Origin: Bdellovibrionales bacterium
Lineage (GTDB): Bacteria; Bdellovibrionota; Bdellovibrionia; Bdellovibrionales; JAUICD01
NCBI GenBank assembly: GCA_965197425.1
Contig: CBDANC010000015.1
Location: 202,704 to 266,703 of the forward strand
Direction of reading: 5' to 3'
DNA: 64,000 bases
A program made the position numbers and the translations under genes. Under the pieces are notes generated by a model, which was given only the letters and a program-made list of their open reading frames with translations, ran no database searches and was not told the origin of the DNA. Below, piece by piece: positions 38,552 to 43,583 of the stretch (its first letter is position 1; the number at the start of each line of letters is the position of its first letter).

Positions 38552-40189
38552 TTAATTCTTATTATTTTCTCTATCAGTTTTTTTTAACCATCTATAAAGA
38601 GTTGATTTAGGTACATTTAATTCTTCAGCGGTCTCAAGTACACCTACTTCTTTTGCCTGTTCTACGGCCTTGGTTTTAAATTCTTCTGTATATACTTTTC
38701 TTTCAAGAATCTTTTTGATTTCGACACCGAGTTTGTTTGCCCAGTTATAAATATTGTCTATTGGGACATCGAATTCTTTAGAGGCCTCAGGAGCCCCTAC
38801 TTCTTTTGCTCGCTCTATGACCCTGATTTTAAATTCTTCTGTGTATGTTTTTCTTTCGCGAATCTTTTTGATTTCCACACCTCGTTCATTTGCCCATCTA
38901 CGAATATTGTCTGGTGAGACATCGAATTCTTTAGCGGCCTCAGGAGCACCTACTTGTTTTGCATATTCTACGATCTTTGTTTTAAATTCTTCTGTATATG
39001 TTTTATTAATCCTTTTGATTTGAATACCGAGTTTGTTTGCCCATTTACGAACATTTATTATTGGTACATCGAATTCTTTAGCGGCCTTAGATACCCCTAC
39101 TTCTTTTGCCCGCTCTATGGCCTTGGTTTTAAATTCTTCTGTATATGTTTTACGGATATTTTTTTTTATTTTAACACCGAGTTTGTTTGCCCAGTTATAA
39201 ATATTGTCTATTAGGACATCGAATTCTTTAGAGGCGTCAGGAGCCCCTACTTCTTTTGCTCGCTCTATGACCTTGGCTTTAAATTCGTCTGTATATACAT
39301 TTCCAATTTTAACACCTGGTTCTTCTATCCCTTCATGAATGGCTACTCTTGATATATTTAATTGGCCTGAGGAGTTAGGTGTGTCTAAATTTATGACAAG
39401 CTTTGTGACTTTATCTTTTTTTGTATAGTCACTGGTTTCTACACCGAACTCTTCCATCCATCTACGAATAGTTTCTCCTGATTTATTTAGTTCTCTGACA
39501 GCCTCGGATACACCTTTTTTTCTGACTAACTCTACGGCCTTAGTTTTATATTCATCTAACCAAATATAAATGGTTAGCCCGGTTTCACTTAATTGTCTAG
39601 AGGCCTCAGGTACACCTTCTCTTATTGCTAATTCTACGGTTTTGGTTTTATGTTGATTTAACCAATAACTAATAATTTCTCCTGATATACCTAATATTCT
39701 ACTAGCCTCTGGTACACCTTCTTTTCTAGCTAGCTCTATGGCCTCAGTTTTTTCTTCATTTGAATATGTTTTATGAATCTGAGTATTTCTGATTTGAGTA
39801 CCTGTTCTTTGCTCGTAGTCGATTATCCATTCTTTTAAAGAGGTCCTACCCATGTCCAATAGTTTTGCTGCTCCATTTACATTTCCTTCCATTACTTTTA
39901 CTACTTCGATAGCAAGAAGTTTTTCTTCATCAGAGTACCTACTTCCCATAAGAGGGTTTCTGACACTAAAGTATGCATCTACTGCTCTTTTAATTTCAGC
40001 TGCCTTATCAACTCCTAATTCACGAAATTGATCTAAAATGGATTCAGATTCTTCGCTTGAATTTTCAAGTGACTCTGTAAGCGCGTTTTTACAAGGAGCC
40101 TGGTTTGTATCGTCTAGTGCAGGCATCCCATCTGTCATGGCGTACACATTGAATGAAAAAACTAATGAAAAAATAAAATTCAAAAACAT
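38552..40189 (-). CDS. Exported poly-HTH protein, paralogue 1 (9 transposase-OrfA-like HTH modules)
   Basis: It has the signal peptide MFLNFIFSLVFSFNVYA. Modules of 35-50 aa repeat, e.g. YTEEFKTKAIERAKEVGVSKAAKEFDVPIINVRKWANKLGIQIK. These resemble the IS3 OrfA N-terminus (YSxEFKxxAVxLxxxxGxSxxxVAxELGIxxxTLxxW). Confidence 0.7.
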   Translation of the reverse strand: MFLNFIFSLVFSFNVYAMTDGMPALDDTNQAPCKNALTESLENSSEESESILDQFRELGVDKAAEIKRAVDAYFSVRNPLMGSRYSDEEKLLAIEVVKVMEGNVNGAAKLLDMGRTSLKEWIIDYEQRTGTQIRNTQIHKTYSNEEKTEAIELARKEGVPEASRILGISGEIISYWLNQHKTKTVELAIREGVPEASRQLSETGLTIYIWLDEYKTKAVELVRKKGVSEAVRELNKSGETIRRWMEEFGVETSDYTKKDKVTKLVINLDTPNSSGQLNISRVAIHEGIEEPGVKIGNVYTDEFKAKVIERAKEVGAPDASKEFDVLIDNIYNWANKLGVKIKKNIRKTYTEEFKTKAIERAKEVGVSKAAKEFDVPIINVRKWANKLGIQIKRINKTYTEEFKTKIVEYAKQVGAPEAAKEFDVSPDNIRRWANERGVEIKKIRERKTYTEEFKIRVIERAKEVGAPEASKEFDVPIDNIYNWANKLGVEIKKILERKVYTEEFKTKAVEQAKEVGVLETAEELNVPKSTLYRWLKKTDRENNKN

Positions 40190-40233
40190 AAAATAGCACC
40201 CATTTTAATTCCTATTATTTTCTCTATCAGTTC

Positions 40234-41838: not shown

Positions 41839-41852
41839 AAATAGTACCTATT

Positions 41853-43583
41853 TTAATTCCTATTATTTTCTCTATCAGTTCTTAACCATCCACGAAGAGT
41901 TGGTTCAGGTACATTTAATTCTTTAGCGACCTCAAGTACGCCTACTTCTTTTGCCCTCTCTATGGCGTTAGTTTTAAATTCTTCTGTATACGATTTACGG
42001 ATGTTTTTTTTGATTTCCACACCGAGTTTTTTTGCCCAGTTACGAATAGTTTGTACTAAGACATCGAATTCTTTAGCAGCTTTAGGAGCCCCTACTTCTT
42101 TTGCCCGTTCTACGACCGTTGTTTTAAATTCTTCTGAATACTTTTTGATTTCGACGCCGAGTTTTTTTGCCCATCTACGAATAGTCTGTTCTAAGACATC
42201 GAATTCTTTAGCGGCTTCAGGTGTACCTACTTCTTTTGCTCGTTCTATAACCATGATTTTAAATTCTTCTGTATATGTTTTAAGAATCTTTTTGATTTTC
42301 ACACCACGTTCTTTTGCCCAGTTATAAATATTGTCTACTAAGACATCGAATTCTTTAGCAGCTTGAGGCGCACCTACTTCTTTTGCTCGTTCTATAACCA
42401 TGATTTTAAATTCTTCTGTATACTTTTTGATTTCGACACCGAGTTTTTTTGCCCAGTTACGAATAGTCTGTTCTAAGACATCGAATTCTTTAGCGGCCTC
42501 AGGAGCCCCTACTTCTTTTGCATATTCTACAACCATGATTTTAAATTCTTCTGTATACTTCTTGATTTCGATGCCGAGTTTTTTTGCCCAGTCACGAATA
42601 CTGTATACTGAGACATTGAATTCTTTAGCGGCCTCAGGAGTCCCTACTTCTTTTGCCCGTTCTACGACTTTGATTTTAAATTCTTCTGTATATACATCTC
42701 CAATTTTAACACCTGGTTCTTCTACCCCTTCATGAATAGTTACTCTCGATATGTTTAATTGACCTGGAGAGTTAGGTGCATTTACACTTATGACAGGCTT
42801 TATGGTTTTCTCTTTTTTTGTATAACTGATTTCCACACCGAGTTTTTTTGCCCATCTACGAATAGTTCCTGCTGGTTTATTTAATTTTCTAGCGGCATCA
42901 GATATGCCTTCTTTTCTAGCTAGCTTTACAGCCTCGGTTTTATATTCATCTAACCATATATGAATAGTTAGCTCGGTTTCATTTAACTGTCTAGCAGCCT
43001 CAGGTACACCTTCTCTTATTGCTAACTCTGCGGTCTTGGTTTTATATTGATTTAACCAATAACGAATAGTTGTCCTTTGTATACCTAATATTCTACTAGC
43101 CTCAGATACACCTTCTTTTCTAGCCAGCTCTATGGCCTCGGTTTTTTGTTCGTCTGTATATGTTCTTTGAATCTGAGCGTTTCTGATTTGAGTACCTGTT
43201 CTTTGCTCGTAGTCGGTTGTCCATCTTCTTAGAGACCTTTCATTCATGTCCAATAGCTTTGCAGCTCCATTTACATTTCCTTCCATTACTTTTACTACTT
43301 CGATAGCAAGAAGTTTTTCTTCATCAGAGTACCTACTTCCCATAAGAGGGTTTCTGACACTAAAGTATGCATCTACTGCTCTTTTAATTTCAGCTGCCTT
43401 ATCAACTCCTAATTCACGAAATTGATCTAAAATATATTCAGATTCTTCACTTGAGTTTTCAGGTGACTCTGTAAGTGCATTTTTACAAGGAGCCTGGTTT
43501 GTATCGTCTAGTGTAGGCATTCCATCTGTCATGGCGTACACATTGAATGAAAACACTAATGAAAAGACAAAATTTAAAAACAT
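41853..43583 (-). CDS. Exported poly-HTH protein, paralogue 3 (10 HTH modules)
   Basis: It has the signal peptide MFLNFVFSLVFSFNVYA. The N-terminal ~130 aa are nearly identical to paralogue 1. Six consecutive YTEEFKIMV(I/V)ERAKEVG.PEAAKEFDV......W.K.LGVEIKK units follow. Confidence 0.7.
   Translation of the reverse strand: MFLNFVFSLVFSFNVYAMTDGMPTLDDTNQAPCKNALTESPENSSEESEYILDQFRELGVDKAAEIKRAVDAYFSVRNPLMGSRYSDEEKLLAIEVVKVMEGNVNGAAKLLDMNERSLRRWTTDYEQRTGTQIRNAQIQRTYTDEQKTEAIELARKEGVSEASRILGIQRTTIRYWLNQYKTKTAELAIREGVPEAARQLNETELTIHIWLDEYKTEAVKLARKEGISDAARKLNKPAGTIRRWAKKLGVEISYTKKEKTIKPVISVNAPNSPGQLNISRVTIHEGVEEPGVKIGDVYTEEFKIKVVERAKEVGTPEAAKEFNVSVYSIRDWAKKLGIEIKKYTEEFKIMVVEYAKEVGAPEAAKEFDVLEQTIRNWAKKLGVEIKKYTEEFKIMVIERAKEVGAPQAAKEFDVLVDNIYNWAKERGVKIKKILKTYTEEFKIMVIERAKEVGTPEAAKEFDVLEQTIRRWAKKLGVEIKKYSEEFKTTVVERAKEVGAPKAAKEFDVLVQTIRNWAKKLGVEIKKNIRKSYTEEFKTNAIERAKEVGVLEVAKELNVPEPTLRGWLRTDRENNRN

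Follow-up and report, generated by a model that had tools for sequence, protein, structure and literature searches.

We describe three tandem genes in a 64,000-nucleotide stretch (hereafter the window) of contig CBDANC010000015.1 from a Bdellovibrionales bacterium, each encoding a hydrophobic, signal-peptide-like N-terminus followed by an array of 9–10 helix-turn-helix (HTH) modules of the transposase-derived family HTH_Tnp_1. The trio occupies a conserved gene junction as an insertion, its copies differ in module number and at a small set of module positions, and the genes are not insertion sequences (IS). The best explanation that we can offer, to which we give somewhat less than an even chance as a whole, is that the three products are Sec-exported, flexible, polyvalent nucleic-acid-binding proteins made from domesticated transposase HTH domains, which would act on DNA outside the producer's cytoplasm within an ankyrin-associated exported repertoire, and that they belong to a lineage-restricted, uncharacterized family of uncultured low-GC relatives of Bdellovibrionales.

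Architecture and predicted fold of the HTH arrays

The list of open reading frames (ORFs) and our reading of the sequence give three head-to-tail genes in tandem on the minus strand, with products of 576, 534 and 545 residues (paralogues 3, 2 and 1, respectively; coordinates are collected in Table 1). The proteins are 71–75% identical to one another, and their N-termini read MFLNF[VI]FSLVFSFNVYA, then MTDG or TTGG. At the DNA level the block contains 20 copies of a unit of ~130 nt, spaced 135–153 nt apart. The original prediction, made from the sequence alone, had proposed three tandem export-leader genes built of 9–10 transposase-type HTH modules, in the order four short modules, a linker of about 45 residues and five or six long modules; ORFs, Pfam and repeat analysis agree with it, the linker measuring 44 residues. 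Plus-strand ORFs of 86–153 residues within the block are treated here as antisense artefacts of the repeats.

The identity of the modules is given by Pfam, which assigns them to HTH_Tnp_1 (PF01527), the DNA-binding domain of IS3 OrfA, at E-values of 1e-23 to 1e-40. The three proteins score 99.5, 82.6 and 137.5 bits against a gathering threshold of 24.1 bits, in 5–9 separate stretches per protein (paralogue 3: E 1.8e-40, nine stretches), and a purpose-built hidden Markov model of the module recovers 8–9 modules in each. Every module aligns to positions ~1–57 of HTH_Tnp_1 and carries the signature Y-S/T-x-E-F-K ... G ... A-A-K/R-E-L/F ... T-L/I-Y/R-x-W; matches to HTH_28, HTH_23, BrkDBD and MerR_1 overlap the same stretches. 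The profile assignment is therefore to an HTH, as had been proposed, and not to a non-DNA-binding repeat of the Sel1 or TPR kind. The block of long modules is basic (net charge +8 to +20). The N-terminal region that precedes the modules is acidic (net charge −6 to −8) and is modeled with a helix at residues 47–76; C33 is the sole cysteine of paralogue 3, and each of the other paralogues likewise has one.

For the fold, AlphaFold2 (AF2) was run on the 576-residue protein with a 12-sequence family alignment. Every module is predicted as a triplet of helices of ~14, 8 and 10 residues, with a predicted local distance difference test score (pLDDT) of 75–90; the N-terminal 59 residues and the linker (253–297) are disordered. 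The predicted template modeling score (pTM) is 0.25 for the full protein. A three-module fragment reaches pLDDT 83 and pTM 0.45, with no confidence in the inter-module geometry. This low pTM, together with the independent helix triplets, suggests a chain of beads on a string and not a rigid solenoid. A rigid solenoid of the kind seen in transcription activator-like effectors (TALEs), whose logic the original prediction had invoked, is unsupported: the model of the protein alone shows independent HTH beads and no TALE-like superhelix.

The hydrophobic N-terminus is very likely translated, because the start of paralogue 2 lies only 14 nt past the preceding stop; the gap between paralogues 2 and 1 is 44 nt. 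A Shine-Dalgarno-like AGGGA or GGGTG stands ~10 nt upstream of the first ATG in all three genes, and the gaps retain a GG-rich pre-ATG sequence. A downstream start that would skip the hydrophobic segment is unlikely, as Met18 is Thr in paralogue 2 and no Shine-Dalgarno-like sequence precedes it.

The leader, the wider family and the link to ankyrin proteins

The hydrophobic N-terminus of the trio spans 17 residues and runs into the acidic region. By heuristic criteria its core, FLNFVFSLVFSF, averages 2.4 on the Kyte-Doolittle scale and comes with V-Y-A at −3 to −1, so that both an h-region of at least 7–8 residues and small residues at −3/−1 are present. The 16 residues after the hydrophobic segment are acidic and free of Lys and Arg; the positive-inside rule thus favors translocation of the C-terminal part. 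Between paralogues, the signal-peptide codons differ by 0–1 nonsynonymous against 2–3 synonymous changes. Homologues that are only 25–35% identical keep a hydrophobic N-terminus and a small-x-small site, many of them with canonical positive n-regions, and this conservation of hydrophobicity without conservation of sequence is the behavior expected of a working signal peptide. Export of the trio is thereby well supported by comparison of sequences; signal-peptide cleavage, final location and target are what we infer. The invariant cysteine is preceded by Q-A-P, V-P or S-S-L. A lipoprotein was considered and rejected, as the lipobox [LVI][ASTVI][GAS]C is missing and the cysteine lies 16 residues past the core.

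A word-based search of 5.8 billion proteins gave trio matches limited to two paralogues. HMMER against 1.84 billion cluster representatives returned 419 proteins at E ≤ 1e-3, of which 108 reach E ≤ 1e-10. The majority are cytoplasmic and consist of 4–5 tandem HTH_Tnp_1 modules in 200–350 residues; about 20 of the best 149 relatives have a hydrophobic N-terminus and the shared architecture. Nine relatives (P0006, P0009, P0010, P0013, P0014, P0019, P0025, P0036 and P0046) align with the trio from residue 1 at an overall identity of 27–33%. These full-length relatives share the hydrophobic segment, an invariant C[KQ]xAL, the acidic spacer and the 'IVDEFxxIRNP' helix, and in them each HTH module is followed by W[VI]xxYE....IRN. 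More distant members (P0005, P0012, P0016, P0041, P0047 and P0070, and six genes of the metagenomic contig L085) have canonical signal peptides whose n-regions contain Lys or Arg. Array genes with signal peptides often stand in tandem clusters, and some are fused to ankyrin repeats. P0010 and P0025 are not encoded in the window but are listed for a contig that matches the trio's in length (461,012 bp) and in sources; on these grounds the trio's contig seems to carry five members or more.

Not one of the 20 family clusters that we looked up has been named in any source, searching the PDB chains by sequence gave no match, and our literature search brought up no account of signal-peptide proteins built as tandem HTH_Tnp_1 arrays. 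The suggestion that the family is unrecognized thus stands, in that no name, solved structure or published description matched the trio architecture, and the searches for homologues, names and literature did not place its full-length homologues in a well-characterized family. The 576-residue product itself has no exact match in a collection of 15 billion proteins in which the other two paralogues and same-contig neighbors are present; the deposited annotation of this gene may use another start or a pseudogene mark. Among the relatives that are cytoplasmic, P0017, P0024, P0069 and many others form a large, unnamed class of 4–5 modules (e.g., MAYTDEQKIQILIHAKEHGV...), and P0017 has a match at E 2e-49 to phrog_1303, a phage family labeled 'DNA binding protein'. 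The signal-peptide array protein P0047 is carried by a 2.45-Mb contig (L086, 52% GC) that also encodes eukaryote-like repeat proteins: a 4517-residue RCC1/WD40-repeat protein and a leucine-rich-repeat protein (positions 1–3089 and 16556–16783).

The leader is also found on another type of cargo. The window encodes a 1209-residue ankyrin-repeat protein in which a signal peptide is followed by C-x-x-x-L ('ACVDVLTG'), as in the HTH-array family. On the 2.8-kb contig of P0013, an adjoining ankyrin gene that starts ...TAQSLDCMQALS bears the same leader motif as the HTH arrays and is flanked on both sides by HTH-array genes. In L085 (50 kb, 31% GC), positions 63–12028 hold six tandem paralogous genes of 283–721 residues, each composed of a canonical signal peptide, C-x-x-x-L, ankyrin repeats and an HTH_Tnp_1 array. 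Since HTH-array and ankyrin proteins have this leader in common, it seems to work as a portable module for the export of repeat proteins. The shared leader is the strongest circumstantial support, drawn from sequence, for an effector-like role. A second ankyrin protein of the window (218 residues) has a lipoprotein-like N-terminus (…APIIVSC).

Genomic setting and divergence of the copies

The trio lies between two housekeeping operons, with mtaB upstream and rnc-era-der downstream, all on one strand as first described. The best named relatives of its MtaB are from metagenome-assembled genomes (MAGs) of Bdellovibrio and Pseudobdellovibrio (~50% identity), and a scan of GTDB gives 44–53% for Pseudobdellovibrionaceae/Bdellovibrionales and at most 38% for other phyla. 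Scanned with the trio itself, this collection, of which the carrier's own genome is not part, gave no match. Judged by this protein, the carrier is a divergent, uncultured, low-GC (~34%) member of Bdellovibrionota; the GC content of the trio (34–37%) is inside the window's range.

Comparison of the mtaB-rnc junction, which had been proposed as a check, finds the trio site empty in most relatives. The rnc gene is downstream of mtaB in all 16 Bdellovibrionales loci, and at least 12 have it within ~30–250 nt; the spacing is clearly wider in L006 (1.5 kb) and L008 (0.7 kb), both GTDB MAGs. A metagenomic relative with 77% MtaB identity has a gap of 144 nt and no trio in the junction, in a setting (nifS-mnmA-mtaB / rnc-der ... 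GrpE-HemW-M16) syntenic with the window. In a relative with 89% MtaB identity the site is occupied: a trio homologue starts 165 nt past mtaB (MFLNFVFKLAFSFNVYATTDG...PCKEALTES...), where the contig breaks. Given the close mtaB-rnc spacing in relatives, the trio is a recent, lineage-specific insertion of 5 kb in a conserved junction.

The junction seems to be a recurrent insertion site. In a relative with 53% MtaB identity (L088, positions 7674–12321) it holds two unrelated Cys-rich proteins of 620 and 732 residues with hydrophobic, signal-peptide-like N-termini and no Pfam match; the 2.66-Mb contig of this relative encodes the signal-peptide array protein P0016 elsewhere, beside AbiE and ParE genes. 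In the 77% relative (L003, 5191–7234) der follows rnc directly with no era between; in the window era stands between the two, and the genes of rnc-era-der overlap at their stop and start codons. Rfam and tRNA scans of the whole window gave no matches. Further along the window, amid housekeeping genes, lies a probable defense or mobile island with a restriction endonuclease of the MvaI/BcnI type, an N4/N6 DNA methylase, a DUF5677 protein and several ORFs that have no Pfam match.

The mosaic of identity among the copies fits gene conversion. Over alignment columns 101–400 the DNA of paralogues 1 and 3 is 93–98% identical, falling to ~79% beyond, and adjacent paralogue 2 is less alike (86–92% over the same columns), in line with the ongoing recombination or conversion that had been suggested. 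In paralogue 3 a two-module unit of 269 nt is repeated at 88–89% identity (repeat family D4), and duplication of this unit is, on the repeat evidence, how its extra modules were gained. The ratio of nonsynonymous to synonymous substitution rates (dN/dS) between paralogues is 0.44–0.55, a sign of selection that is purifying but relaxed. Relative to paralogues 1 and 3, paralogue 2 has lost one nucleotide near its 3′ end; the deletion shifts the frame in the last recognition helix, so that the protein ends ...AAKELKYLRTLFIDG (window 40255–40275), and ...NVSKNTLYRWLRTDRENNRN is retained in the +1 frame. This copy is either in the early stages of decay or affected by an error of sequencing.

Within the modules, variation is concentrated. 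In 13 core near-identical long modules of 45 residues, columns in the turn and helix 3 have a mean entropy of 1.1 bits, and those in helices 1 and 2 a mean of 0.58. Variation falls at positions 28–31, 33, 34 and 37–39, around an invariant core of I32, W35 and A36; we take the variable positions to be positions 1–3, 5, 6 and 9–11 of the recognition helix, its canonical ligand-facing face. The independent array P0005 also varies most in these columns, and the variable columns of P0016 include the turn and the start of helix 3 as well as the turn between helices 1 and 2. That the exposed face of the recognition helix varies hints at diversified specificity, and no more than hints at it, because pairwise counts are not phylogenetically independent.

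The genes are not insertion sequences, since they have neither a DDE domain nor inverted repeats. No DDE or rve family is among the Pfam matches shown for the trio, and the NCBIfam IS3 transposase model NF033516 scores 36–58 bits against a cutoff of 160, with a match confined to its first ~45–70 positions (1–68 of 369). No terminal inverted repeats bracket any gene or the block; a scan finds only seven weak AT-rich pairs of 17–24 nt, 74–89% complementary. On these points the original prediction was right, and an IS or IS remnant is rejected, the ORFs being intact and under purifying selection.

Table 1. Features of the trio and of other genes in the window (positions counted from the first letter of the window)
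Feature	Position	Strand	Remarks
Paralogue 3	41853..43583	-	576 aa; four short and six long HTH_Tnp_1 modules
Paralogue 2	40234..41838	-	534 aa; layout as paralogue 3 but five long modules, the last one truncated
Paralogue 1	38552..40189	-	545 aa; layout as paralogue 3 but five long modules
Signal-peptide codons, paralogue 3 (MFLNFVFSLVFSFNVYA)	43533..43583	-	hydrophobic core and V-Y-A at −3 to −1
Signal-peptide codons, paralogue 2	41788-41838	-	counterpart of the paralogue 3 segment
Signal-peptide codons, paralogue 1	40139-40189	-	counterpart of the paralogue 3 segment
Acidic N-terminal region, paralogue 3 residues 18-84	43332..43532	-	includes the conserved 'IVDEFxxIRNP'-type helix
Cys motif C33-K-N-A-L37, paralogue 3	43473..43487	-	C33 and L37 invariant in the 12-sequence family alignment
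Four short HTH modules, paralogue 3 residues 85-253	42825..43331	-	Pfam and AF2
44-aa linker, paralogue 3 residues 254-297	42693..42824	-	pLDDT 29-44, no secondary structure, predicted disordered
Six long 45-aa HTH modules, paralogue 3 residues 298-576	41856..42692	-	module and repeat analysis
Five-long-module block, paralogue 2	40237-40944	-	counterpart of the paralogue 3 block
Five-long-module block, paralogue 1	38555-39295	-	counterpart of the paralogue 3 block
1-nt deletion, paralogue 2	approx. 40264..40266	-	comparison of the three 3′ ends
Upstream intergenic region, paralogue 3	43584..43746	-	Shine-Dalgarno-like AGGGA ~10 nt before the ATG
mtaB	43747-45015	-	upstream flank
rnc-era-der	35659-38496	-	downstream flank
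Ankyrin-repeat protein, 1209 aa	15053..18682	+	Ank E 9e-155; starts MNYKIIIVFLFVFISHGFAFGSPACVDVLTG
Ankyrin protein, 218 aa	13859-14515	-	
Omp85/BamA homologue	2508-4823	-	predicted signal peptide MINIIFILITQAVHANA
Probable defense or mobile island	48679-56557		
MvaI/BcnI-type restriction endonuclease	50632-51321		within the island
N4/N6 DNA methylase	51329-52576		within the island
DUF5677 protein	53647-54480		within the island

Proposed function and known systems

In the mechanism that we favor, an HTH_Tnp_1 domain would have been domesticated from an IS3-type OrfA, amplified to 9–10 independently folding modules and placed behind a leader, the Sec-type signal peptide with the invariant Cys-x-x-x-Leu, that also serves ankyrin cargo. 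Sec would translocate the protein, the signal peptide would be cleaved after VYA, and the mature protein would be a flexible chain of beads. Helix 3 of each module would contact nucleic acid, and many modules together may give high-avidity, multi-site binding of host, prey or extracellular DNA outside the producer's cytoplasm, where module-specific residues on the exposed face of helix 3 might tune the binding of each module. The modules of the trio presumably bind DNA, and the exported binders possibly serve as effectors. Tandem duplication, change in module number and gene conversion would diversify the repertoire. A bolder version, which we regard as improbable, has the arrays delivered to the host nucleus or prey nucleoid as programmable polyvalent DNA readers, in which each module would read one DNA word through its hypervariable recognition helix and the shuffled order of modules would set composite sites.

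Several observations weigh against exported nucleic-acid binding. The trio genes cannot be tied to any secretion system or target, and the promoter and terminator scan around them gave chance-level results only. The AF2 model has no fixed arrangement between modules and so offers no evidence of contiguous, TALE-like DNA reading. Two Foldseek searches of the PDB returned nothing significant (E ≥ 0.03); on the other side of the balance, the highest-probability matches are DNA-bound HTH proteins (Brinker 2glo, the tandem-HTH CRISPR-repeat binder Cbp1 2lvs, tandem engrailed homeodomains 6m3d and Mos1/SETMAR), none of them significant. HTH folds can also mediate protein-protein contacts, and the short-module half of the arrays is nearly neutral or acidic. 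The frameshift at the 3′ end of paralogue 2 means that some copies may be decaying. Finally, the n-region of the trio has no Lys or Arg ahead of the core, and in the orthologue of the 89% relative a Lys sits midway through the hydrophobic core (MFLNFVFKLAFSF). The leader had been called a classical Sec signal; its core and V-Y-A site bear this out, and its n-region makes it not fully classical.

These points lend themselves to other explanations. The arrays may be exported as a repeat scaffold with no affinity for nucleic acid, in which the HTH fold, like ankyrin repeats, serves as a generic three-helix module for binding host, prey or envelope proteins, a serious if rather unlikely alternative. 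The leader does carry ankyrin repeats as well, both repeat types are fused in the L085 proteins, variation on an exposed helix face suits any ligand, sequence-specific DNA binding would be unusual in the periplasm or exterior, and the short-module half is not basic. A mere scaffold, however, would hardly call for the full HTH_Tnp_1 signature that is retained, including the L/I-R/Y-x-W motif of the recognition helix and the basic tail, nor for the charge of the long-module block (+8 to +20), nor for variation at the canonical base-contacting positions 1, 2, 5, 6 and 9 of the recognition helix. Slightly less probable, in our estimate, is that the proteins handle DNA in the periplasm or outside the cell for the producer's own benefit, as a ComEA-like receptor or ratchet, a binder of extracellular DNA matrix, or a protein that holds prey DNA for secreted nucleases to act on. 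By itself a Sec signal takes a protein no further than the periplasm, the lineage is related to predatory Bdellovibrionales, and flexible polyvalent DNA binders suit capture and bridging; against this, no helix-hairpin-helix or ComEA-type domain is among the Pfam and NCBIfam matches shown, the genes are unusual for an uptake system of the housekeeping kind in being accessory, present in several copies and quick to diversify, and they co-occur and fuse with ankyrin repeats.

The uncharged n-region and the Lys in the core of the 89% relative, together with the many signal-less cytoplasmic HTH_Tnp_1 arrays in metagenomes, would also agree with a hydrophobic segment that is an uncleaved anchor or is not exported at all, the arrays facing the cytoplasm as tethered or soluble DNA-binding regulators or nucleoid proteins. 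We hold this to be very unlikely. The 16 residues past the segment carry no positive charge and disfavor an N-out/C-in topology, the small-x-small cleavage motif is in place, and distant homologues have canonical cleavable signal peptides. Moreover, the n-region of the Omp85/BamA homologue encoded in the same genome is likewise without Lys or Arg, and Omp85/BamA is an obligate Sec substrate; n-regions of this kind may be widespread in this organism, or the Omp85 gene may have been assigned a wrong GTG start. Least credible of all, and effectively refuted already, are functionless, degenerating remnants of IS OrfA genes. The HTH domain is of IS3 origin and one copy is frameshifted at its 3′ end, but ORFs of 534–576 codons are intact with dN/dS at 0.44–0.55, the architecture is kept in homologues that are only ~30% identical, neither a DDE partner nor inverted repeats accompany the genes, and an orthologue occupies the same site in a relative.

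Returning to exported nucleic-acid binders as the preferred explanation, an exported family with 9–10 HTH modules would point to an unrecognized class of extracytoplasmic or trans-kingdom nucleic-acid binders. The trio is also a clean example of a transposase DNA-binding domain that has been domesticated and amplified; if its modules differ in specificity, the arrays could offer a new modular scaffold for DNA recognition. The shared leader may flag the set of effectors exported by a poorly known, uncultured branch of Bdellovibrionota. The HTH_Tnp_1 domain, tandem-HTH DNA binders and secreted modular DNA-binding effectors are each already known. It is for their combination that we found no precedent described, in a conserved family of 9–10 HTH_Tnp_1 modules behind a signal peptide and Cys leader, fused to or clustered with ankyrin repeats.

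One close counterpart of the modules is IS3 OrfA (InsN-type), with which they share the HTH_Tnp_1 signature and the modeled three-helix HTH. OrfA has one HTH where each trio protein has 9–10, and the trio lacks the C-terminal leucine-zipper part, the OrfB/DDE partner, the frameshift site and the inverted repeats, and carries a signal peptide instead. Ankyrin effectors are known from host-associated bacteria such as Anaplasma (AnkA), Legionella and Coxiella (Ank). The present family resembles them in sharing its leader with ankyrin proteins, to which its relatives are fused, and in the accessory, multi-copy character of the genes; the trio itself has no ankyrin repeats.

Among secreted DNA-binding proteins the comparison is with the TALEs of Xanthomonas, the RipTALs of Ralstonia and Bat/BurrH of Burkholderia. 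In both cases near-identical tandem repeats (13 modules of 45 residues in the trio) vary at a few ligand-facing positions, and a recombination-diversified multigene family is presumed to act outside the producer. The folds are unrelated, a 45-residue HTH in the trio against a two-helix repeat of 33–35 residues in TALEs, and no TAL-effector repeat family is among the Pfam matches shown for the trio, which are overwhelmingly HTH families; its leader is of Sec type rather than a type III secretion signal, and it has no activation domain. Should the arrays prove to be programmable readers, which as said we think improbable, they might be viewed as an HTH-based analogue of TALE nucleomodulins in an ankyrin-exporting lineage of Bdellovibrionota. 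In build, the trio resembles the tandem-HTH binders Cbp1 (2lvs), Myb R2R3 (1h89), Pipsqueak/Brinker (2glo) and mariner/SETMAR (7s03, 4u7b), small three-helix HTH units on flexible linkers that, when joined, together read extended DNA sites; these binders rank high in probability, though not in significance, in the Foldseek results. HTH DNA-binding domains normally act within the producing cell, and these binders place 2–4 units in the cytoplasm or nucleus of their producer; the trio places 9–10 behind an export signal.

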